13,618 nucleotides of DNA. Source: a virus (Duplodnaviria > Heunggongvirae > Uroviricota > Caudoviricetes). The notes below the pieces were generated by a model. That model searched no databases. It had not been told where the DNA came from and saw only the letters and a list, made by a program, of their open reading frames with translations. Position numbers and translations under genes: made by a program. The DNA lies in IMG/VR virus record IMGVR_UViG_3300028532_000077; one strand, 5' to 3'. Numbering within the stretch: position 1 is the stretch's first letter; each line of letters begins with the position of its first letter. Shown here piece by piece: positions 132-13,558 of the stretch.

Positions 132-273
132 AAAACACTCGATTAATCTCGTGTTAATGCCATCACCTACGACCATTACTAATTGATTGAATCTTATAGA
201 AAAATCATCATTTTCTATGCGTCACAATCAATTTTCACATTACAAACGCTCCGACACTTTAGCCGGAGATTTT

Positions 274-1551
274 ATGAGATACAAGCCTAACCAATACTTA
301 ATCTGTGATTCTTACGGTAACTACTATTTGAGGATCACGTTGCCTGTGTATATGCAGCCCTTTTTTGAAGGAAAAAGGACGTTTGTCAGAAGTCTGCACA
401 CAAGTAATCTTCGTGTTGCACGTAGAAAGCGTGATCAGATTGCAGATGAATACCATTGCTTACGGGAGAGTGTTGCCCCTGTAAACAGCACAATAGAAAA
501 CACGCTGGAACTGTTACGCAGTAAGGCTAAATACGCCAAAACAGCTACCAGAGTGCAAGATACAGCGTCTTCGTGTCCGTCATTGCTTAAAATTCTTGAA
601 ATCTACCTGACAATTAACAGCACGAAGAAGAAGCCAGCCACTTTAGCTAAGGCAAGAAAAGCGGTAGAGATGTTTCTCTCCTACCGTAAAAAGCCTGATA
701 TTGCATTGCAAGATGTAAGCCGCACCACTGTTACAGGCTGGATTGAACACATGCAAAAAACTCTTTCACAACAATCAATTGCAAATTATATCAGCCCAAT
801 GGCCCAGCTATGGGAATTAGCTTCATCACGTTACCACGATGCGCCAGAAAGGGCGCTCTCCCCCTGGCGAGGGCATAGGCTTGATGTGGCACAAAGTAGA
901 GAGAGCTACGAGGCATTTTCTAACAAAGAGCTATTGCAGGTGTTGCAAGTATTTTCCGGTAATTCAGCAGAAAACAAAGAAATGACGGCTTTGTGTCTTA
1001 TCGGTTTATATACAGGTATGCGGATCAATGAGATAGCAAGTCTCACAATAGACGATGTGAAAGAGATCGAAGGTGTGCTGTGTTTTGAAATCACACAGGG
1101 AAAAACGAAAGCTGCGGCACGTCTTGTGCCTGTGCATAGCCTTATCACTCCATTGGTGTTATCTCTTCGTGAAAAGCCTCACAATGGCTTTTTGTTCTAT
1201 CACGCCAGCATTACAGAGCGTGCTGACGGTAAACGCTCTACGTGGCATACACAACGATTTACAAGAGCTAAACGAAAGGCTTTAGGGGAAAAGGGAACAG
1301 AAAGGAAAGTGTTTCATTCTCTGAGACACGGAGTAGCACAGCTTCTTGATCGAAATCAAATTCCAGAGGACCGCATAGCTTTAATTTTGGGCCATCAGCG
1401 CGGCAATACAGAAACATTCCGCACATATAGCAAGAATGCAGCTTCTCCAGTAGAGCTTAAAAAATATATTGAGCTTTTACGCTACCCTGAAATAGAGAAA
1501 GGCTTATCAATCAATAAAAAATCAAATTTAAGGCGTAAAACAACGCCATAG
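274..1551 (+). CDS. int: Tyrosine recombinase / phage-type integrase
   Basis: C-terminal catalytic signature visible in translation: LYTGMRINE (Arg), HSLRH (His-x-x-Arg), LGHQRGNTETFRTY (His ... Tyr nucleophile). N-terminus YGNYYLRITLPVY...GKRTFVRSL resembles the arm-binding domain of phage integrases. Start chosen at ATG 274 with GGAG 5 nt upstream; ORF is open from TTG 187, ATG 217 also possible. Confidence 0.9.
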   Translation: MRYKPNQYLICDSYGNYYLRITLPVYMQPFFEGKRTFVRSLHTSNLRVARRKRDQIADEYHCLRESVAPVNSTIENTLELLRSKAKYAKTATRVQDTASSCPSLLKILEIYLTINSTKKKPATLAKARKAVEMFLSYRKKPDIALQDVSRTTVTGWIEHMQKTLSQQSIANYISPMAQLWELASSRYHDAPERALSPWRGHRLDVAQSRESYEAFSNKELLQVLQVFSGNSAENKEMTALCLIGLYTGMRINEIASLTIDDVKEIEGVLCFEITQGKTKAAARLVPVHSLITPLVLSLREKPHNGFLFYHASITERADGKRSTWHTQRFTRAKRKALGEKGTERKVFHSLRHGVAQLLDRNQIPEDRIALILGHQRGNTETFRTYSKNAASPVELKKYIELLRYPEIEKGLSINKKSNLRRKTTP

Positions 1552-1625: not shown

Positions 1626-2282
1626 TTATTTCACTTCTCCGTCATACGTCGGAAGGGTGTCTTTAGTGGTGCTGGCTGTTCCTGCATTGGTTGGCACTCG
1701 GCTTTTTACCTGTCCGCCTGTGCTCTTAGGTGATGCGGTCTTTATAGCAATAGCGTTAGTAGTTGCATAACTCACTAATCTTATCTGTTCGAACTGCAAA
1801 TCAAACTGTAAAGCTGATTCTGTTTTATATTCGTAGTCAATGCCTGTCAGAATCATATTATCAAACGTCTTATGCTCTGTGCTTACAATAATAGGCTGTC
1901 TGGCATTCATTATTTCATCAAGATAAGCAATAGCCTGTGAACACCTGTTACCGTTCACCCCTGCACTTGATAGCATATCACCACGTAATGCTAATGGTGT
2001 TTCTGTAATAATGCCTGAAAGCATAAGTTTATTATTCTTGATCCTGACATTATCAGATACATCATTACCATCCTGCACAGGATACGATGTAACATCGGCA
2101 GAACGTGAAACCTTAGTTGCCGGAACAGCGTCAAAAGTAATAGCTTTATAACTGGCTATCGTTGATGCATTTTCGTTATTCAGGTTGCTACATATAATGG
2201 CAAATCCGTTATCAGATTTAACCTTGCTGTTAGATGTATTAATGTTAGATGTGCTGTTGATCTGACTTTCTTTGATAGCCAT
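1626..2282 (-). CDS. Hypothetical protein (218 aa), last gene of the virion-like operon; possible minor structural protein
   Basis: Long ORF with AAGGA Shine-Dalgarno about 10 nt upstream of ATG; lies 73 nt downstream of the 633-aa gene on the same strand; Ser/Thr/Asn-rich sequence with no recognisable catalytic motif. Confidence 0.7.
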   Translation of the reverse strand: MAIKESQINSTSNINTSNSKVKSDNGFAIICSNLNNENASTIASYKAITFDAVPATKVSRSADVTSYPVQDGNDVSDNVRIKNNKLMLSGIITETPLALRGDMLSSAGVNGNRCSQAIAYLDEIMNARQPIIVSTEHKTFDNMILTGIDYEYKTESALQFDLQFEQIRLVSYATTNAIAIKTASPKSTGGQVKSRVPTNAGTASTTKDTLPTYDGEVK

Positions 2283-2355
2283 TTATATTAATCCTTGTGT
2301 AATGAGCGGAAAGCAATAAATATTGCCCCCGCTTTATTATTAGTTATCGTTAAAC

Positions 2356-4257
2356 TTAGTTAACGCTACTCTGTCCTGACAACGTGCTAAGAATCAGATT
2401 CGAACTAAACTGATTGTTGTTCGCTCTGATCTCAGTGCGGATTAAATCCTGAAAGCCGGGACCGTTAGGGATGACGTTAACAGAGATCATATCACTCGGC
2501 ACCGTAACCTGTGCATTCACGTTAACAGGAGTTGCGTATTGACGTTGTAGGCTTACAGTCGGCTGATAGGCTTCTGCTTTACGTGCAACAAGGGTTGATC
2601 CGTAGCTGTTAGCATTGCCATTAATTAAATCAGTCCACCACCCTGGAACGCCGGACTGTGTTTCCTCACCGCGCACAATACGCCCTACATCTTTCGTATC
2701 GAGTCCAGTTGCATAACGAATACCTTCATTGATAATCGTTGATGGCGACCATTCCCCATCTGTAACAGCGTCCATAACCTTTTGTGTCTCAGGTCTGTTA
2801 TCATTCTCACCACGGCTAAGATGTTTATTAATCCAGCTTGTGATTTGATTCCCGTAAGAAGTCATAGAGGTCAGTAATACAGCGCCTTGTTTAGCCAAAT
2901 CCCCGAACGATGCACCAACACCATAAGCTGCATTCTGTAAGGCTTTGCTTTCTTCCGGTTTGAGTGCTGGCATGTTGGCTATGCCATCAAAGAAGCCCAA
3001 AATAGCCTGATTCGATAGTCCATCTGTCAGACGGTCAAAGGCTGTAGCTGTCTTGTTAGCTGCGCGATATTGCTCTTTCTGTGCTTCTGTCAGTAGCTGC
3101 CCGTTGTTTTCCATATCAACCATCGTTTTACGGAACTCTTCCCCATCACGGGAAAACATCTTGAGATAATGGCTGGCATCGTCTGCTAATGGTTCGATCA
3201 GGGATATGATGGCTTCTTTAGTCATTCCTCGGCGTTCACCTTCTCTCACCACGTCTTGCAGGAGTTGCAGCGGTCGCCCCTGGTAGGAAGCTATCTTATC
3301 TTTGTTCCATGCAAAGGCATTCTGAATATCATTTAATGATCCTTCCCCGCCTCGCCACTCTTTTTTCTTACTATCCCATTCAGCAGTTCGGCTTTGATGA
3401 CCAATGCGTTCGTTTAAGTCTTTGATATTGTCAGTGGTCTTGTCCACGCTTGCACTTGATACACCGTTTGCCCTCCCCCAATTAACCATTGCAGCCACCT
3501 GGTTGGAGTCTGCGCCTACCAGATCGCTCATCTTCTGCAATTCCATACGTTCACGGGCTTTTTCCATTCCAGCAGATACAGCCATACTTCCTAAGCCAAC
3601 GGCAGCGCCGCCGATAATGCCACCAACACCGCCCATCATTAACGCGCCACCGCCGCTAACACCTTCTTTGTGGAGCTTCTTAGAAGTAACTGGATATACA
3701 CCCCCAGCGGCAGCATTACGACGCGTAGCAGCGGCTGCGGCTCGTCTTTCTAATGTGATGCGGTCACGGATCAGGGCATTCATCTTCGCTTGCGATATAG
3801 CGCCGGATTCATAGAGGCGGGTTTGTTCCTTAATGTAACGTAGAGCATCGTGATATTTCTTAATATCCATCCCTTCGCCATAGCGGGAATTGTTCTTGAT
3901 GCCTTGTAACTGGCGATATGATGCAAGGCGCTTGATCTCTGCCTTTTCAGCAATTGAGGCTTGTTTAGCCTGTGCTTTAGCGAGGTTTTTAGCTTCCTGT
4001 AGCTTCTGTTTAGTGCTGGCTTTAGATGCCTGTGTCTCAGATTTAACAGCCCGCTTAACATGCTGATCATGCTGGCGCTGAATCTCTTTTCCCAGCCTCT
4101 GTAAATCTTTCTGACGTGCTGCCGCCACTTGCACAGGTTTGATCCCCTGCATCTTCTTTTGTAGCTTATCCACTTCATTCTTAGCTTTCTGTAAGCTCTT
4201 GAAATCAGTGGTAAATGTCACAACATTACTAATTCGTGAGGCGGTAATTTCTAACAT
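2356..4257 (-). CDS. Coiled-coil / glycine-zipper protein (633 aa), tape-measure-like or ejection-protein-like
   Basis: N-terminal ~170 aa are K/Q/A/E-rich heptad-like (LQKAKNEVDKLQKK..., KQKLQEAKNLAKAQAKQ); central hydrophobic Gly-rich segment GGGALMMGGVGGIIGGAAVGLGSMAVSAGM as seen in phage tape-measure and pilot/ejection proteins; no enzymatic motif recognised. Confidence 0.75.
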   Translation of the reverse strand: MLEITASRISNVVTFTTDFKSLQKAKNEVDKLQKKMQGIKPVQVAAARQKDLQRLGKEIQRQHDQHVKRAVKSETQASKASTKQKLQEAKNLAKAQAKQASIAEKAEIKRLASYRQLQGIKNNSRYGEGMDIKKYHDALRYIKEQTRLYESGAISQAKMNALIRDRITLERRAAAAATRRNAAAGGVYPVTSKKLHKEGVSGGGALMMGGVGGIIGGAAVGLGSMAVSAGMEKARERMELQKMSDLVGADSNQVAAMVNWGRANGVSSASVDKTTDNIKDLNERIGHQSRTAEWDSKKKEWRGGEGSLNDIQNAFAWNKDKIASYQGRPLQLLQDVVREGERRGMTKEAIISLIEPLADDASHYLKMFSRDGEEFRKTMVDMENNGQLLTEAQKEQYRAANKTATAFDRLTDGLSNQAILGFFDGIANMPALKPEESKALQNAAYGVGASFGDLAKQGAVLLTSMTSYGNQITSWINKHLSRGENDNRPETQKVMDAVTDGEWSPSTIINEGIRYATGLDTKDVGRIVRGEETQSGVPGWWTDLINGNANSYGSTLVARKAEAYQPTVSLQRQYATPVNVNAQVTVPSDMISVNVIPNGPGFQDLIRTEIRANNNQFSSNLILSTLSGQSSVN

Positions 4258-4291
4258 GTTAATTGTTTCCCTGTATTATGATTATTGTTTG

Positions 4292-4489
4292 TTATTGTTT
4301 TTTAGAGCAATAATATTGGATTGCCTCAAAAGTGCTGCACCCAGTCTGAAACACACGCTGCCGCACATTATTTGCATCAATTGAAAGCATTCTGCATAAG
4401 GCACTGACATTGATTATTGAGTCATCGCTAATAGCTGCCAGTTCTTTTACAGCCTTAAGAATAAAGGATTGTGGGTTTTCTGTATTCAT
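4292..4489 (-). CDS. Small hypothetical protein (65 aa)
   Basis: ORF between the 343-aa and 633-aa genes on the same strand; weak purine-rich RBS (GAGAGAAAACC); no motif recognised. Confidence 0.45.
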   Translation of the reverse strand: MNTENPQSFILKAVKELAAISDDSIINVSALCRMLSIDANNVRQRVFQTGCSTFEAIQYYCSKKQ

Positions 4490-4640
4490 TGGTTTTCTCT
4501 CACATATATATTTTTATTTGGGTTTGTAGACAGTAGAAAAACAAAAAGGGCAAAGAGATTCGTTACTGTATTTGCGCCTACAGGTTAGTTAATCCCTTTA
4601 CCCTTATTGCCCCGATGGGGAATCGTCTATTAACGCTTTA

Positions 4641-5672
4641 TTACGCAGCAGATCCGAAGATGATAGCTTGCGGAATGTTGTTTACTGGCAGATAAGATGT
4701 CTCAGTAACCACAGATGGGAATTGGAATTCATCCTTGATTAGATATTGGTGATGCAACACGGCATCTTGACCTAACTCAGCATGACGCACACCAACGCCG
4801 CTATGAAGCTGGTAACACTGTGCCGCTTTATCCATTACCGGAACAATTGCGAAACCGTTCTCTCCGATGTGAGCAACAATCTCAGGAAACATTGACACAT
4901 CAATAACAGTGATCCCACCAATCTGGAAAGAGTCATAGGCTGGGTTAGAATCAACCATACGGGTAAACAGGGCCGTAGCACTCGCATCACCTGCATATTT
5001 CACCATGTCACTGATCAGCGGGTTAGATGACAAACCATCAGCAGCAGCGCCAGCAGCAAAGATAATTACACCAGTTCGCTTTGCAGCAAGACCAGACCCC
5101 AGCTTTTCACTCTGTAAGCGCACCGCTTTACGAATAGCAAGGAACGGGTTAACAGTAGTCGATGCAAAGTCGATAGCGGGTACCGTGGTTTTAGCCTGAC
5201 CGTCGAGGAAGTCGAGATCACCTTGTCCGGCATATTCAGATTCAACTTTCAGTCCCAGCAGCGCGGTAATCAGATCCACTTCAACACGGTTTGCGTGTGA
5301 ACGGTAATGAGCCTCAGAGAAATCATTAACCGCTACCAGCATAGCATCAGAACGGTTTGGATATTGGCGGCTGTATTGTTCCAGGTCACGAGAAGTAACA
5401 GCGTTAATACTGCCGACGTGTTTCATCTGGAAAAGTTTGTTTGACCATTCCTGACGTTTAGAAGCGTTCCAGTCGCTTTGAGCGTAAGGCGAGGTTTCCC
5501 CGGCTACCTGCACAAACTGCTCAATCAGGTCGGTAAGAAGAATGCTGTTTTCTGTATGATATTGCACATCGAACAGATCGAGATTAGTAATCAGGGTATT
5601 AAGTGCATTCTCATAAGCAAATGGAGTTACTACCGCAGTATTAACGCCAAAATATGTTGATAAATCATTCAT
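4641..5672 (-). CDS. Putative major capsid-like protein (343 aa)
   Basis: Size and position match the major capsid gene of lambda-like head modules (about 340 aa, immediately after an about 120-aa gene); AAGGAAAATAAT RBS; mixed alpha/beta composition with no nucleotide-binding or catalytic motif. Assignment is from context only. Confidence 0.6.
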   Translation of the reverse strand: MNDLSTYFGVNTAVVTPFAYENALNTLITNLDLFDVQYHTENSILLTDLIEQFVQVAGETSPYAQSDWNASKRQEWSNKLFQMKHVGSINAVTSRDLEQYSRQYPNRSDAMLVAVNDFSEAHYRSHANRVEVDLITALLGLKVESEYAGQGDLDFLDGQAKTTVPAIDFASTTVNPFLAIRKAVRLQSEKLGSGLAAKRTGVIIFAAGAAADGLSSNPLISDMVKYAGDASATALFTRMVDSNPAYDSFQIGGITVIDVSMFPEIVAHIGENGFAIVPVMDKAAQCYQLHSGVGVRHAELGQDAVLHHQYLIKDEFQFPSVVTETSYLPVNNIPQAIIFGSAA

Positions 5673-5686
5673 TATTATTTTCCTTG

Positions 5687-6070
5687 TTAAGTCGTAGGGA
5701 TCGCAAGTTCTTCATAACCAGCAATTACAAAGCCGAGAGATTGCAGTTTTGCAATAACACTTGCCTTTTCCATGCTGTTAAATTCAATCCCATCTTCAGC
5801 CAGAATAACGAAAGTAGGATGTGCAACCACTACGCTTTCCTGTCCTTCATAAGCCGGTTCAACTACTACGTGAGCAATATCAGATGCGGTTGTTGCTTTG
5901 GTGCCATCGGCTTTCAGCAAAGCCCCGACAATAAGATCGTCAGTGAGAGGTGAAGCCAGTTTGACGAGGCGATCTTGCAGCACTGGATCAGCAGCGTAAG
6001 CTACTACCTTACAGCGTGAACGGGAGTTATCCGCATTCACTGCTTTTAATTTTCCATATGGGTTAGCCAT
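5687..6070 (-). CDS. Putative head decoration / scaffold-like protein (127 aa)
   Basis: Stop lies 14 nt from the start of the 343-aa gene; nearly identical AAGGAAAATAAT RBS context; size and position resemble gpD-type decoration proteins upstream of major capsid genes. Context only. Confidence 0.5.
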   Translation of the reverse strand: MANPYGKLKAVNADNSRSRCKVVAYAADPVLQDRLVKLASPLTDDLIVGALLKADGTKATTASDIAHVVVEPAYEGQESVVVAHPTFVILAEDGIEFNSMEKASVIAKLQSLGFVIAGYEELAIPTT

Positions 6071-6272: not shown

Positions 6273-7266
6273 AAATAACGTTCCTGTTAGTGCCAGACAA
6301 ATAAAAAGCCCCAATGCCGTAAGAGGTTAATTCTGACCAGCAAAGGGGCTTTAACGTGCGGGCAATTACATAATTGATAAGTTAAACTATAAGAGGATTA
6401 AACATATCAGCAAATACACTTTTTAAATATACTTGATGATATGCTTAAAGAGTGAATATCAGACCTTAGAAAGGAAGGCTCTTAGGAGTTTGCCACTGGA
6501 ATCACTAAGATCTGATATTCTGGGTGCGGTGGCTAACCGCTGCCTGTTTTTGCTGTGGATGCAACAAAGTAAGGCTTTAAGGAATCACTATTCCAATTCT
6601 CATCTACTCACAGATCAAATTTTAATAGGATTAACTACACCAACAATAATCTACCGTTTCAGAAAAAGCGTTTTTACAACCAAAGATTATAGATTTGCAG
6701 TCTATAAAACCCGTTTTGCTATCAATATTTCCAAAGGTTATTGCACAATTCTTAGCTAAACTCTCTACTTGCGGCTAACGCTACGCAGATGATAGTTTTT
6801 TGACAACAACTTAATAGATTATTCTGTTACTAACTTCTGTCATTAAATAAGAGTTTAATGATGTTAGTAAATAGTTATAAAATATAACTATCAGTGTAAG
6901 GCTCTTTAATGTTTTCGGACAAAATAAGGAGCTTTAGGATAAGCATAGATGAAAAATAAGAGCGGGAAGGGCAAGGAGATAACACCTACCCGCTTTTATC
7001 AAAATTAAGCACAATGCCTAACAACATTCATCAACACAACGTAGAAACAATCAACAATCAAAGAGGGAGTTATGATTATTCTAAAACTTCTTGAGAGATG
7101 GAAGGTAATATTTGTTAGAGGTTAATGCCACTCAACCCTTGAGGCTATCACCTTCCATATGCAGGGATTTATGACAGTAGAAGGATTAACACCAGTCAAA
7201 ACCTTTTTATCTACCCCTAATATCATTATATAATGAAATCGCTATAAATGCAAATGATTTTCATTG

Positions 7267-8243: not shown

Positions 8244-8378
8244 TTTCCCTCTTTTTATGTGGATTATAAAAACTTAATGCCATAGTTACGATGAATATCG
8301 CCATAAATGCACTTGCCATATGTATTGCCCGATCTGTTGTTACTGATTGTTTGTGATGTTATAAATCATTTATTCTCC

Positions 8379-9047
8379 TTAGAATGGTATTGAATCGTAT
8401 ATTTCACTTTTTTCTCTTAGAGATATTATCAGATCGTGAAAAGCCTGTTTCTCAAGATAGATATTCTTTGAATCTAATGCTCGTTTTACAAAATCTTCTG
8501 TTTCTTCGTGCGGTGGTTTCTTCTTATCAAGGGAAAGAAGCCAAGTAAAAATTTCGGGCCGCTCAGGGAACTCTGATTCCTGTGTTTCTTCTTCAATGAT
8601 GATTTCTGAAACATTCAATATTTCATTAGATTCGTCTTCTTTCTCAGAAGGATCAGGTAGTGATGACTCTCCAGGGGGAGTAATATGTGCATCTGTGAAT
8701 GGTAATGCTTTATAGAGTGATGTTTGCCCGTCCCGAGCCTCTACAGAAAGAACTCCCATATCAACAAACATATTTATAATATTGCGAACCTGGCGATCAC
8801 TAACCATTCCAATATTAGATAATGTTTTTTGAGTGGCGTAACATTCTTGCCCTTGTTCATTGAATCCAGCTATATAGCTATAGATTTCAACGGCTGGCAG
8901 TGTAGCGGTGTATTCATTACCTGACGGTGAGAACCACTTTTTAAACATCTTCAACCACTGCTCAACGACTACATATTTTTGTTTACCATCTTTCTGATTT
9001 AGACATTTGGCTTTCGCTTCGGCAATTGTTTTGATATTTTTGATCAT
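8379..9047 (-). CDS. Winged-HTH DNA-binding protein (222 aa), candidate replication initiator or regulator
   Basis: Strong AGGAGG RBS before ATG 9047; segment YATQKTLSNIGMVSDRQVRNIINMFVDMGVLSVEARDGQTSLY has the pattern of a winged helix-turn-helix; acidic C-terminal tail (EDESNEILNVSEIIIEEETQESE). Confidence 0.75.
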   Translation of the reverse strand: MIKNIKTIAEAKAKCLNQKDGKQKYVVVEQWLKMFKKWFSPSGNEYTATLPAVEIYSYIAGFNEQGQECYATQKTLSNIGMVSDRQVRNIINMFVDMGVLSVEARDGQTSLYKALPFTDAHITPPGESSLPDPSEKEDESNEILNVSEIIIEEETQESEFPERPEIFTWLLSLDKKKPPHEETEDFVKRALDSKNIYLEKQAFHDLIISLREKSEIYDSIPF

Positions 9048-9171
9048 TTAGTTCCTCCTTTGTAAGGACTGTAATTAGTAATTCATTAACAAGTTTTGGA
9101 ATTGATTTCCCTTCTGCCTTTGCACGATTTAACAACGCGTTATAAGTTGCAGAATCAAAATTAATATTCAT
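8983..9171 (-). CDS. Ribbon-helix-helix (CopG/Arc-like) DNA-binding protein (62 aa)
   Basis: MNINFDSATYNALLNRAKAEGKSIPKLVNELLITVL fits the beta-strand then two-helix RHH pattern; GGAGAAGGAG RBS; 3' end overlaps the start of the wHTH gene by 65 nt in another frame. Confidence 0.65.
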   Translation of the reverse strand: MNINFDSATYNALLNRAKAEGKSIPKLVNELLITVLTKEELNDQKYQNNCRSESQMSKSERW

Positions 9172-9194
9172 TTGGTTTTCTCCTTCTCCTGTTA

Positions 9195-9371: not shown

Positions 9372-9494
9372 TAATTAACCTCCTATTCTATTTGGTTAAA
9401 AGAAAAAGACACCTTGCAAGCCTCTTGGGCTTCAAAGTGCGGTGCATTGGTTTAATTATTTAGAGGATAGGAATGTTTTCCTGCCCCTAATATT

Positions 9495-9523
9495 ACTTTA
9501 CCATAACTAAAGGCTTTTGTCAA
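9495..9523 (-). promoter_or_regulatory. Candidate sigma70 promoter for the leftward regulatory operon
   Basis: On the minus strand: TTGACA (9523..9518), 17-bp spacer, TAAAGT (9500..9495); about 120 nt upstream of the GTG at 9371. Confidence 0.4.
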
Positions 9524-9787
9524 CCCCCACCCATAAAATATTGATCATTTTTCAGTATGTTATGATTTTGCTTAGCAATTCGTGCTCTTCTGTGTGATGC
9601 TATTCTTCCTTATTCTCTAAAACGCGTTCTAACGAGGTTTTGATAAAAACAATACATTCCCTTATGTAATGACAGTTTAGCTCGCCTACGGCTTGATTTA
9701 AGCGGTAGAAACTTATTTAACCTTCAACTACTAAAACCATTCTTTTTTGTTTGTTGTTGGTTGTTGTCTGTGTCTATGTGCTAACAT

Positions 9788-10060
9788 CGCTAACGCGTAG
9801 CACACAAGGTTATTGCACTCGTCAGAGTATTGCACAATAGATTTTCTCTTAAATAGATTGATGATCGTTAGATTGGCGTAAGCCTCATCAATGGAACTAT
9901 TGAAGCGCACAGCGCATAGACACTAACAACCATTCGCTTACGCTCAGGTTATTGCACAAGTAAATTTCAATCGTTAGATGGTAGTTAGTTAATTATCGTT
10001 CTGCGCACAGCGCAAGACTATTTAGCCTTACGCAAGCCGTAGGCTATTTGCACATAGTAG
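9788..10060. repeat. Modular imperfect tandem duplication (about 100-bp period) with recurring short motifs
   Basis: TCGTTAGAT at 9865 and 9971; GCGCACAGCGCA at 9905 and 10003; GGTTATTGCAC at 9808 and 9947 with variants at 9827 and 10043; GCTAACGC at 9788. Confidence 0.6.
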
Positions 10061-10200
10061 ATTACATATTCGTTGTGAGCGGCATTAGCGAACATAGATC
10101 TACTAACTAACATCAACAAACAAAAACTATGTGTTATGACAAGCAGTCTAACGACTAACACTCTAACTTGTGCAAGGTTCTGGCGAATGCCAATAGATTA

Positions 10201-10235
10201 AGGGATAGTCGTTAGACTCCCTAACGGGTATCCCT
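10201..10235. repeat. Nested perfect inverted repeat (stem-loop)
   Basis: AGGGATA gt CGTTAG actcc CTAACG gg TATCCCT: outer 7-bp and inner 6-bp perfect stems; followed by about 60 bp of AT-rich DNA (10236-10295). Confidence 0.6.
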
Positions 10236-10295
10236 ATAATTATTCTTATAAAGATAAAAAAGAATTATATTATATAGTTTAATTGTAGTATTGTC

Positions 10296-10394
10296 GGAAA
10301 TCATTTCCTAGGTGATAGGAACTCATTTCCTAGGTAGGTAGGAAACCACTTCCACGGTTATTTCCTAAATAGATCGGAACTCATTTCCCAGGTG
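10296..10394. repeat. Iteron-like array: four 19-bp direct repeats, each with internal dyad symmetry
   Basis: GGAAATCATTTCCTAGGTG (10296), GGAACTCATTTCCTAGGTA (10318), GGAAACCACTTCCACGGTT (10341), GGAACTCATTTCCCAGGTG (10376); spacing 22, 23 and 35 bp; each copy contains GGAA-N5-TTCC. Confidence 0.7.
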
Positions 10395-10860
10395 TTATTT
10401 ATACTTATCGGGTATCAGACTTGATAGGGGTAGCTCACAGTGACCTACCGTTACATCCAATCATCACATAACATCTGTGCAATGATCTTCTAAAAGTGTT
10501 TCTTGCTACCAAAATTAAACATCTAAAACAGGCTTAAATTCAATGTAATTGATGATTAATCCCTGTGTAATTCCTACGTAAAAATCCAATGAAAAGTAGC
10601 TTAAAAAGTGCAATGTTAGCTTTCTTCACTTTTGCGTCATCATCAGCAAAGCCTTATGTTATGCGGCATATAGCGCATCACTGCAAAATTGTTGCTCAAT
10701 AAACGTTCTATCATTTGTCGAACAAGTTCTTTCACGTGTTGAAAATTTATGTTTAAATTTGCTTTCAATCTTTAATGTGCAATCACTATCAACATAAAAA
10801 TAAAAAACCTTCTATTATATTTCATAGCATACAAAAGTCAATAGAAGCCCTCTCGTGCTC

Positions 10861-11244
10861 CTACGTAAAAAATCCACCACTTTTCCCCTTATACATCAAC
10901 TCAAGGCGTTCTATGTGTTCCTTAGTGCATATTACGATTATTATGTTAAATGGATTTTGGACTATATTTTGACCTGCACCCGCATAAACACTGGTTTCAT
11001 CGCTTACAGCCCTTGTGAGACGTGGTGCTGTTTCTAGCATCTGATCCGACATAAAACCGATCATTCTCGTGTTTAGTGAAAGTTTAGTGAGATACATTAC
11101 AGAAAGGCTTTCTGTGTAATGATTTAATAGGTAAAAACGATGTTGATTACGCAAGAAAATTCCTTGCTGATATTTGGGGATTCTGGATTTTCCAGATCGG
11201 GGGGCGGTGAAAATCGCGTTAAGCACTTCTCGCAATCTAGCCAT
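10861..11244 (-). CDS. Questionable ORF (127 aa)
   Basis: Open frame only; no purine-rich RBS before the ATG (CCCTTCCC context); translation has no recognisable features. Listed because nothing else occupies this interval. Confidence 0.2.
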   Translation of the reverse strand: MARLREVLNAIFTAPRSGKSRIPKYQQGIFLRNQHRFYLLNHYTESLSVMYLTKLSLNTRMIGFMSDQMLETAPRLTRAVSDETSVYAGAGQNIVQNPFNIIIVICTKEHIERLELMYKGKSGGFFT

Positions 11245-11260
11245 AAGGGAAGGGATAAAG

Positions 11261-11300
11261 GTATTTAGATGTATTTATAGCTATTTATGGCTATTTATTT
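11261..11300. repeat. Four tandem 10-bp AT-rich repeats (helical phasing)
   Basis: GTATTTAGAT / GTATTTATAG / CTATTTATGG / CTATTTATTT in exact 10-bp register. Confidence 0.5.
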
Positions 11301-11460
11301 TTTATTTACCTTAATTTAAAAATAGCCTTATAAATCAATAAGATACAGGACTATCTGTTTATATTTTGATCAATTAAATCAAGTTTAATACCCTTAAACC
11401 ACCTGAAAATAACCTTAAATACCCCAATAATTAATTTTAACGATTCCTGTGCTCTCTCCT

Positions 11461-11531
11461 ACTTTGCAAAAAGGCAAAAAAGCCCATAGAGGCACAAAAA
11501 TATTAAAACCAATAACTCAATAATGCCTCTA
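11461..11531 (-). terminator. Putative terminator downstream of the 183-aa gene
   Basis: Perfect 8-bp inverted repeat TAGAGGCA (11487-11494) / TGCCTCTA (11524-11531); on the minus strand the hairpin is followed by a U-rich tract (GGGCUUUUUUGCCUUUUUGC). The 29-nt loop is long, so only moderate support. Confidence 0.35.
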
Positions 11532-11549
11532 CAAGAGCTTCTCTAACTG

Positions 11550-12101
11550 TTATTTTTGATTGAGCTTACATCGATCCCATTGTTCTGTCGTTCTTGTGAT
11601 ACGATCGCTTATTGCAAAATTTAATAGCCAAGAATCATAAGCATAAACCTTGCTTTTATCATCTGCCATCATAAACTTGCCGTTAGCATTCAGTTTTGGC
11701 GATATCAAATATGTTCCATTTAATCTGTTAGCCTTGAAGCTATCTGCATATAAAGTTACTTGTGCGTATCCCTGAACACGTAATGCCCCTAAACGTCCGT
11801 TTTCGATTGATGCAATAGAGTATTGGCAAAGATAATTTTTGGCAGCAGGAGTCGTTTTCACTCCTTCAGTTTTTCGTGAATTATTTGATTGCGAGCTTCG
11901 AATAGAGGATGAAGGATAAGAGTATGAATGATTTTTATAAGATGAAGGGGCATAAGAGCCAATCCGGCACGTCTTACCAACAGCTATACACGAGTTACCA
12001 CAAGGTATTCCTTTTTTGCAGTTTTTAGCAACTGCGGTAGAAGTTCCCCCTACAAACAACGTTGTAAAAATCATCATCCTCACAAATGCAGACCTGCGCA
12101 T
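11550..12101 (-). CDS. Secreted Cys-motif protein of unknown function (183 aa)
   Basis: Strong GGGAGG RBS 5 nt before ATG; N-terminal signal peptide (MRRSAFVRMMIFTTLFVGGTSTAVA, Ala-x-Ala cleavage context); mature N-terminus C-KKGIP-C-GNS-C-IAVGKT-C has four spaced cysteines; then a Ser/Tyr-rich linker. Confidence 0.8.
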   Translation of the reverse strand: MRRSAFVRMMIFTTLFVGGTSTAVAKNCKKGIPCGNSCIAVGKTCRIGSYAPSSYKNHSYSYPSSSIRSSQSNNSRKTEGVKTTPAAKNYLCQYSIASIENGRLGALRVQGYAQVTLYADSFKANRLNGTYLISPKLNANGKFMMADDKSKVYAYDSWLLNFAISDRITRTTEQWDRCKLNQK

Positions 12102-12390
12102 ATAACCTCCCTTTTTAGATTATTCTTATGCTATACACTTGCTTAAAAAAATAAAAGTGCCCTCTAACCTTTATCGTTCTCCATCACAATTTGAGAAGTA
12201 AGAGCAGCAACCTCAAGCGATGATCACGTTTGCGCCGATTTCAGAGAAAAAGACAGTAACTGAACTCACTATGAAGGCTAAACGTATCTTTACACTTGAT
12301 GAAAACGTTCAAAAAACAACCTAACCCCAAAATTCAACAAATAACAACATATTGTTTTTAAAAGAAAATTAAATCTACATCAAATATTGG

Positions 12391-12419
12391 TTGACGTAGA
12401 TTGAGGTGAATAGTAGACT
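12391..12419 (+). promoter_or_regulatory. Candidate sigma70 promoter for the small plus-strand ORF
   Basis: TTGACG (12391-12396), 17-bp spacer, TAGACT (12414-12419). Confidence 0.35.
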
Positions 12420-12495: not shown

Positions 12496-12654
12496 ATGCA
12501 TTTACTTTCAAAACATCTTCACACTATTCACTTTCTCGTTATTGATGTATTCATTGTGGCTATTAGTTACCGCATTTGCATCGCTTCCAGTGAAGAGATG
12601 GACGCTGTTGCAATTATTGCTCAAGCAATGGCGATGTTAACTAAACGACTTTAA
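12496..12654 (+). CDS. Small protein (52 aa) with a hydrophobic core
   Basis: ATG 12496 has GGAGG 5 nt upstream; encodes MHLLSKHLHTIHFLVIDVFIVAISYRICIASSEEMDAVAIIAQAMAMLTKRL; the SD can pair with TCCTCC 13 nt upstream (12468-12473). This frame differs from the 12431..12640 ORF in the supplied track. Confidence 0.4.
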   Translation: MHLLSKHLHTIHFLVIDVFIVAISYRICIASSEEMDAVAIIAQAMAMLTKRL

Positions 12655-12720: not shown

Positions 12721-12873
12721 TCAATCCTTAAGCCATTTCAACTCACTAAGGAGTTTTCTTTCTTCGTTCTCTCTCTGTTTACGCTCTAGCCAGGCTTTTC
12801 CTTCTGGCGTAGACAGGAACTTACGAGCGTGAATCTTGCGGTTATTACGTTTGATAGCTGCAATGTTTTTCAT
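12721..12873 (-). CDS. Small basic protein (50 aa); not in the supplied ORF track
   Basis: ATG at 12873..12871 with AGAGG 7 nt upstream; encodes MKNIAAIKRNNRKIHARKFLSTPEGKAWLERKQRENEERKLLSELKWLKD; stop TGA at 12723..12721. Confidence 0.4.
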   Translation of the reverse strand: MKNIAAIKRNNRKIHARKFLSTPEGKAWLERKQRENEERKLLSELKWLKD

Positions 12874-13481: not shown

Positions 13482-13501
13482 ATGGTGCCGATAATAGGAG
13501 T
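13482..13501. repeat. attR-type direct repeat overlapping the tRNA-Thr 3' end
   Basis: Identical to 112-131. Confidence 0.8.
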
Positions 13502-13558
13502 CGAACCTACGACCTTCGCATTACGAATGCGCTGCTCTACCAACTGAGCTATGCCGGC
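13483..13558 (-). tRNA. tRNA-Thr (anticodon CGU)
   Basis: Reverse complement is GCCGGCATAGCTCAGTTGGTAGAGCAGCGCATTCGTAATGCGAAGGTCGTAGGTTCGACTCCTATTATCGGCACCA: 76-nt cloverleaf with D-stem GCTC/GAGC, anticodon loop TTCGTAA (CGT), T-stem GTAGG/CCTAT with TTCGACT loop, encoded CCA. Confidence 0.93.

Follow-up and report, generated by a model that had tools for sequence, protein, structure and literature searches.

A swappable cargo gene of an Escherichia coli island encodes a predicted exported protein with a four-cysteine module and a phage-related barrel

We studied a stretch of viral DNA of 13,618 nucleotides (Caudoviricetes; IMG/VR record IMGVR_UViG_3300028532_000077), called here the window, and in particular the gene at positions 11550-12101 on its minus strand. 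The window corresponds to a phage-related Escherichia coli island of ~13.5 kb, lying between a truncated LysR gene, by the pao operon, and a transfer RNA gene, tRNA-Thr(CGT), by proA. We found that the gene is true swappable cargo of this island, well conserved and widely travelled, and that its product has, judging from its sequence, all the features of a Sec-exported protein. The product joins a four-cysteine (Cys) module to a small beta-barrel, and both modules recur in the accessory loci of temperate phages. As for its role, we tentatively favour the possibility that this is an accessory ('moron'-type) gene, whose exported barrel would block an envelope target and shield the carrier against superinfection by phages or against a wall hydrolase injected into it.

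The gene sits at the tRNA end of the island, opposite the integrase, inside a cassette with defined limits.

Positions 10746..12214, no strand assigned: replaceable cargo cassette of ~1.5 kb, delimited by blastn breakpoints against loci L026 and L027
Positions 13483..13558, minus strand: tRNA-Thr(CGT), the integration site at the cargo end
Positions 187..1551, plus strand: tyrosine integrase (PF00589, PHROG 1), at the opposite end of the island

Loci L026 and L027 aligned with the window at 95-99% on both flanks, and what lies between, ~10746-12214 of the window, was replaced. In sister islands whose core is 97-99% identical (O104:H4 and JX21CE33), a serine recombinase gene occupies the cassette slot, accompanied in JX21CE33 by a YecR lipoprotein gene. 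Since near-identical sister islands have a recombinase in place of the gene, we conclude that it is swappable cargo. An earlier reading, made from the sequence alone and referred to below as the sequence-only reading, had called the gene probable cargo and proposed to look for variability among related islands; such variability exists, in the form of a presence/absence polymorphism with defined swap boundaries. Counts across 5426 complete E. coli genomes agree with it. The island capsid gene was found in 234 of them (~4%, at >=95% nucleotide identity) and this allele in only 99. A cross-genus comparison had suggested that the gene belongs to the conserved core of the island family, and this was ruled out by the sister E. 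coli islands that lack it. Besides the gene, the cassette holds an unannotated open reading frame (ORF) of 127 amino acids (10861-11244, minus strand), which has no RefSeq annotation and no Pfam or PADLOC hit and, among the loci compared, was otherwise seen only in the sister locus L001.

The gene is also found well beyond this island. Any copy of it was present in 131 of the 5426 E. coli genomes, the 32 in addition to the above 99 carrying a divergent allele. The 99 copies were at least 99% identical to the window, and most of the matches listed were 100% identical over the full length. Related islands with a homolog were found in at least 10 genera. In those of Enterobacter, Klebsiella, Serratia, Kosakonia and E. 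coli B27 the homolog is always the first gene at the tRNA end, and homologs were also found in species-representative genomes of Scandinavium, Citrobacter, Pseudenterobacter, Buttiauxella and Kluyvera. Across genera, the homolog was 61-70% identical to the window, the capsid gene 45-48% and the tape-measure-like gene 26-34%. The main clade of homologs is 79-100% identical internally, and the window allele forms a divergent branch at 64-70%.

In these related islands the homolog seldom stands alone. At 10 of 13 related loci the next gene encodes a secreted protein of 165 residues and, in the three loci checked, starts 23 nucleotides downstream; in Klebsiella, SieB (PF14163, E 2.6e-25) is encoded 27 nucleotides downstream of the homolog. 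Most related loci also have a small tyrosine or serine recombinase further downstream. The 165-residue protein (10585-11082 in L005, 10591-11088 in L020 and L022, 6280-6795 in L004) shows a weak DUF6301 match. It is 88-100% identical across genera, which is above the barrel protein's own conservation, and is absent from the window. The sequence-only reading, which had described the gene as sitting apart and standing alone, thus holds for the E. coli allele, where the next ORF downstream is 305 bp away and terminator-like structures lie on both sides (see below), and fails for the family as a whole: in most related islands a second gene begins 23-27 nucleotides after the homolog, a point that it had missed.

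A tblastn search of the window found no remnant of SieB, of the 165-residue secreted protein or of a tyrosine or serine recombinase; the window never had these partner genes or lost them cleanly. At the inner edge of the cargo region, related loci carry a small recombinase gene (17616-18167 in L026, 17211-17762 in L027, 11602-12162 in L009 and 13249-13806 in L020), which in sister islands is of the serine type, with 183-185 amino acids, in some and of the tyrosine type, with 186 amino acids, in others. This recombinase may mediate cassette exchange. Two short unannotated segments flank the gene in the window, at 11401-11480 and 12215-12300, and recur in other E. coli genomes (83% and 98.8% identical, respectively), each immediately downstream of the gene for the serine recombinase that sister islands carry. 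We regard them as candidate junctions of the cassette. A search for inverted repeats flanking the cassette, as an invertible segment under the control of that recombinase might have, returned short, weak pairs only.

The gene has a Shine-Dalgarno sequence and a probable terminator, and its product is predicted to be built of four parts.

Positions 12106..12113, minus strand: Shine-Dalgarno sequence AAGGGAGG, 4 nucleotides before the ATG, read from the sequence
Positions 11550..12101, minus strand: coding sequence of 183 codons plus stop (stop at 11550-11552), its product identical to the RefSeq 'hypothetical protein' WP_001323651.1
Positions 12027..12101, minus strand: predicted signal peptide, residues 1-25 (MRRSAFVRMMIFTTLFVGGTSTAVA), with a presumed signal peptidase I cut after Ala25
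Positions 11958..12026, minus strand: four-cysteine module, residues 26-48 (KNCKKGIPCGNSCIAVGKTCRIG), beginning 1-3 residues past the cleavage site
Positions 11847..11957, minus strand: Ser/Tyr-rich low-complexity linker, residues 49-85
Positions 11553..11846, minus strand: C-terminal beta-barrel, residues 86-183, with C92, C178 and a TEQW motif; 9 strands
Positions 11467..11545, minus strand: hairpin and U-rich tract directly 3' of the stop codon, a probable intrinsic terminator

The Shine-Dalgarno sequence and its distance from the ATG bear out the strong ribosome-binding site that had been claimed for the gene. The 3' hairpin has a folding free energy of -29.7 kcal/mol (z -3.56), and none of 200 shuffled sequences (0/200) was equally stable in RNA folding; a simple terminator scan missed it because of its long loop. 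Upstream of the gene, a further terminator-like site lies at 12372-12402.

Selection has acted on this reading frame. In a codon alignment of 14 homologs, the ratio of nonsynonymous to synonymous substitution rates (dN/dS) was 0.27 over the whole gene and differed among its regions as follows.

Cys motif: dN/dS 0.05
Barrel: dN/dS 0.24
Linker: dN/dS 0.41
Signal peptide: dN/dS 0.58

We conclude that 11550-12101 is a real gene under purifying selection. It was not found to be homologous to a housekeeping periplasmic protein: no Pfam or NCBIfam family covers it, and it is confined to 131 of the 5426 E. coli genomes.

The predicted leader has a charged n-region with Arg2, Arg3 and Arg8, a hydrophobic core, MMIFTTLFVGG, with a Kyte-Doolittle peak of 2.28, and a c-region, TSTAVA, in which Ala stands at -3 and -1 of a cut placed before KN (A23-V24-A25, then K26). 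These sequence features agree with the clear signal peptide that had been reported. Leaders of the homologs differ in sequence and keep the same n/h/c layout. Cleavage after Ala25 and a periplasmic location of the product are predictions from the leader. No lipobox ([LVI][ASTVI][GAS]C) is present, as V-A-K-N-C is found at the first cysteine, where the consensus of 124 module carriers reads A-[AQ]-K-N-C. The protein would accordingly be laid out as MRRSAFVRMMIFTTLFVGGTSTAVA/KNCKKGIPCGNSCIAVGKTCRIG-(Ser/Tyr-rich linker)-barrel, the slash marking the cut, and its mature form would be strongly basic, with 24 Lys+Arg against 9 Asp+Glu.

The four cysteines are spaced C28-x5-C34-x3-C38-x6-C45, exactly the C-x5-C-x3-C-x6-C motif noticed in the sequence-only reading. 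The four cysteines, G31, G35 and I39 are invariant across 124 other, unrelated proteins. Because these Cys, Gly and Ile columns are invariant there and because the dN/dS of the motif is the 0.05 given above, we take it that the motif is no chance pattern. A profile search of 1.84 billion representative proteins gave 603 hits, in which the Cys-module and barrel halves were separate. The consensus of the module reads A-[AQ]-K-N-C-K-K-G-[IQK]-P-C-G-N-[ST]-C-I-[SA]-x-x-K-[TV]-C-[RH]-[IV]-G. In 151 of 174 carriers it lies at residues 18-32, and therefore directly after a signal peptide. A stretch rich in Ser, Thr and Pro comes next, and then unrelated domains, which in a set of 122 carriers were SH3_3 (20), SH3_4 (9), an Ada-type zinc domain (5) and a few each of SNase, Excalibur and GW. 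The module is also found by itself or as tandem copies in secreted peptides 42-90 residues long, and more than 700 protein clusters carry it. No Pfam or NCBIfam model covers it, and a literature search on the motif string and the RefSeq accessions found no paper.

AlphaFold2, run with a 73-sequence alignment, modelled the module as a small beta-hairpin, in which residues 31-40 had a predicted local distance difference test (pLDDT) value of 83 and residues 41-50 one of 75. In the protein, two disulfides, which would be made in the periplasm, probably hold such a hairpin together. A speculative reading, which we regard as unlikely, is that the [KRQ]-N-C-K-K-G-x-P-C-G-N-S-C-I-x4-K-x-C module, set right behind the signal-peptide cut and ahead of a disordered tether, is an unrecognised, widespread device for anchoring or sorting proteins after export, and that here it stations an infection-blocking barrel of phage origin. 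The disulfide-locked basic hairpin could then fix exported SH3, nuclease or barrel domains to an envelope polymer or surface, and the infection blocked could be that of helper or competing phages. Among the other carriers, the large multi-domain proteins P0097 (1365 amino acids) and P0145 (612 amino acids) have copies of the module between domains, and some of the copies in P0097 have degenerated, the first cysteine being absent (e.g. DGTPCGDSYISSDKTCRVG). Some stand-alone module peptides bear the name 'deoxyribonuclease-1', given by JGI.

The linker that follows contains 12 Ser and 4 Tyr among its 37 residues, so that its description as Ser/Tyr-rich stands; its pLDDT is ~40 and its length varies among homologs. 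Behind it comes the barrel. With 30 homologs, AlphaFold2 gave residues 1-82 no confident structure and residues 86-180 a nine-strand antiparallel barrel, at pLDDT 94-97. Two further conserved cysteines, C92 and C178, which had been overlooked in the sequence-only reading, lie on the first and last strands of the model and probably close the barrel by a disulfide. In an alignment of 17 diverse barrel domains, C9, Y11, P52, T89, Q91, W92 and C95 (alignment numbering) are invariant. Residues 86-181 match PHROG 2578 (E 1.4e-17) and PHROG 14768 (E 7e-17). A fold search of BFVD returned small uncharacterised phage proteins, some of them named lipoproteins, at E 6e-7 to 7e-4. Other fold searches gave the following scores.

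Cap15: 8.3
Brucella PhiA, a lysozyme-type hydrolase inhibitor: 7.7
OmpW: 7.4
NHBA: 7.0
TbpB: 7.0
PliC: 6.4
ACP: 6.2
BtaiB, a type VI secretion immunity protein: 5.9

These are generic small barrels only, the lysozyme inhibitors PhiA and PliC being among them at weak scores and with no link in sequence. Searched with a profile of the barrel, the PDB sequences gave only a chance sortase match (E 1.1), and a word-indexed homolog search with the barrel profile found only fragments of the same family. A periplasmic binder or inhibitor could have the modelled fold, but the fold points to none in particular.

Both modules were found in temperate phages, at accessory positions. A relative consisting of the barrel only lies between N and cI of a lambdoid prophage. 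In two examples, a barrel with a variable C-terminal domain lies between the tape-measure gene and the arc/antirepressor region: the domain behind the barrel is IalB-like in a siphovirus-type prophage and matches PHROG 13318/3917 in Klebsiella phage ST11-VIM1phi8.1. The Cys module, for its part, is joined to SH3 in a protein that the P2-like Pseudoalteromonas phage C5a encodes between its gene A (replication) and its portal gene. This interval, gpA-gpQ, is a published defence hotspot of P2-like phages (PMC9122126).

The roles put forward in the sequence-only reading (superinfection exclusion, inhibition of a lysozyme or toxin, virulence) are still hypotheses. We favour an envelope or anti-phage role because SieB is the neighbour of the homolog in Klebsiella and because relatives of the barrel lie in accessory slots of prophages. 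Under this reading, whose cleavage site, disulfides, periplasmic location and exclusion or blocking function we infer, the product would be exported by Sec and cut after Ala25, and its six cysteines would be oxidised in the periplasm. The barrel would be the working part, a head that binds and blocks an envelope protein. Its target might be a component of the incoming phage, such as a tail-tip, tape-measure or wall-degrading protein, or else a receptor of the host. Through the flexible Ser/Tyr-rich tether of ~37 residues, the basic Cys module would keep the barrel at some structure of the envelope, and the island-bearing cell would gain protection against superinfection or against a hydrolase injected into it.

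Several results weigh against this exclusion role. Pfam, NCBIfam, PADLOC and PHROG searches gave no homology link to any protein of known function: WP_001323651.1 had no match in Pfam, NCBIfam or PADLOC (PADLOC-DB v2, E <= 0.01), and every PHROG matched by the barrel family, 2578 and 14768 included, is labelled 'unknown function'. Foldseek against PDB gave no hit for the barrel at E <= 1e-3. Known factors of envelope exclusion, Llp and Cor among them, are lipoproteins, and the present protein has no lipobox. To these points are added the lack of a consensus-grade promoter for the gene, for which we found weak -35/-10 matches only, one distant homolog (37% identity) that lies in an ordinary chromosomal neighbourhood, and truncated copies in some E. 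coli (P0234, 61 amino acids; P0041, 120 amino acids; P0062, 90 amino acids). The last observation, together with the want of a strong promoter, would also suit a decaying or non-functional ORF that hitch-hikes on the island. Yet this is hardly credible for a gene under purifying selection across 14 sequences, above all in its Cys motif, with an allele at least 99% identical in 99 genomes, a strong Shine-Dalgarno sequence, a terminator and a confidently modelled C-terminal domain.

The other explanations that we considered accept a functional protein and differ in its target. A specific inhibitor of peptidoglycan hydrolases (lysozymes), of the PliC/MliC/PhiA structural type, would push a loop into the active site of host lysozyme, of a phage tail lysozyme or endolysin, or of a muramidase delivered by type VI or type IV secretion. 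The size of the protein, its predicted periplasmic location and the cysteine pair on the first and last strands are as in such inhibitors. We nonetheless think this rather unlikely, because none of the 17 diverse barrels hit PF09864 (MliC) even at E <= 10, the Foldseek comparison with PDB was not significant, and hhalign, comparing the barrel profile with E. coli MliC, returned a probability of 0.1%, a result that tells against the exclusion role as well. MliC/PliC proteins bear the motifs SxSGAxY and YxxxTKG, and neither is visible in the barrel alignment. An island life-cycle or host-interaction factor, for instance an envelope protein for particle release or uptake, an adhesin, or a binder of host molecules like the NHBA, TbpB and HpuA barrels, would account for homologs conserved above the structural genes (79-100% in the main clade, against 45-48% for the capsid) and for a very basic mature protein that would suit acidic envelope polymers. 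This idea is improbable in our eyes, as the gene is dispensable, more than half of the E. coli islands with the same core being without it, and as barrel relatives in complete phages occupy accessory positions and not morphogenesis modules. Still more doubtful is an orphan immunity protein against an interbacterial toxin, be it a type VI or a colicin-type periplasmic effector, carried on a mobile island by a small recombinase as in acquired clusters for interbacterial defence. A periplasmic location would suit wall-targeting effectors, and the cargo region of the relatives does hold several small exported proteins by a small tyrosine or serine recombinase; however, there is no cognate effector gene nearby, Pfam and NCBIfam show no similarity to a known immunity family, the structural score is weak, and barrel relatives are found in prophages and not in type VI secretion loci.

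The rest of the island gives the cargo its setting. At 1626-6070 of the window, genes encode a lambda-gpE-like capsid, a Dit-like protein (PF21821) and, matching PHROG 16051 at E 4e-72, a tape-measure-like protein. We detected no protease in the island, and neither a portal nor a terminase, so that to call it a satellite is an inference. To our knowledge, its partial morphogenesis set fits no satellite family, and a literature search for a description of the island family returned nothing relevant. A replication-initiator-like gene lies at 8379-9047. The region around it (window 8353-9175, L001 12558-13379) is mosaic, with 51% protein identity, and the rest of the STECUZB006 island (L001) is 98-99% identical to the window. 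Downstream of this gene, the gene-free stretch 9372-10745, conserved among sister islands, contains at 10292-10393 four iteron-like direct repeats of 22 nucleotides (GATAGGAACTCATTTCCTAGGT and variants), which are probably the replication origin of the island. No RefSeq gene is annotated at 6315-7266 (~950 bp), between the capsid and small-gene modules, where the G+C content falls to 34.6%, the island's minimum. Two annotated small ORFs separate the cassette from the tRNA (12496-12654, plus strand, 52 amino acids; 12721-12873, minus strand, 50 amino acids); they are kept in sister islands whatever the cassette and have no family hits. An Rfam scan of the window found the tRNA only.

A secreted accessory protein in the cargo slot of a mobile element is a familiar arrangement, and neither of its modules has a curated family. 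Function aside, the analysis defines two unannotated building blocks, a Cys leader module and a small barrel, which could both become family models, and, in an island family of which little has been described, it maps a slot for cargo whose swap boundaries are clear. Should the protein turn out to stop phages from entering or to block a wall-degrading enzyme, the few exclusion factors known so far would be joined by a periplasmic one that is not a lipoprotein, and PHROG 2578 and 14768, both recurrent in temperate phages of enterobacteria, would acquire a function.

The closest comparison is with the members of these two PHROGs (e.g. QBQ71462.1 of Klebsiella phage ST11-VIM1phi8.1), which have a homologous barrel with the shared Y-x-C...TEQW-x2-C pattern, likewise have a signal peptide, and are encoded in accessory regions of temperate phages. 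In the phage versions the barrel comes directly after the signal peptide and is followed by a variable C-terminal domain (IalB-like PF06776, PHROG 2320, 13318, 1848 or 11231), whereas the window protein has the Cys module and the linker before the barrel and nothing behind it. Any likeness to PliC/MliC and to Brucella PhiA would be one of common fold only, as no sequence or profile similarity to MliC/PliC was found and the window protein is not a lipoprotein. SieB (PF14163) and other exclusion or abortive-infection accessory genes occupy the same kind of genomic slot, but SieB resides in the inner membrane and is unrelated in sequence to the window protein, which has no SieB (Pfam) or PADLOC hit. 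Llp of T5 and Cor of phi80/N15 are likewise small exported proteins of phage origin and, like the window protein in the reading that we favour, would act by binding an envelope component. They are lipobox lipoproteins, whereas the window protein has A-K-N before C28, and no sequence similarity to them was found. The island itself is neither P4-like nor P2-like, having genes for a gpE-like capsid, a tape-measure-like and a Dit-like protein. Its cassette is nevertheless reminiscent of the published hotspots (PMC9122126), where a variable cassette likewise lies by a conserved landmark of a mobile element and is swapped among near-identical elements.

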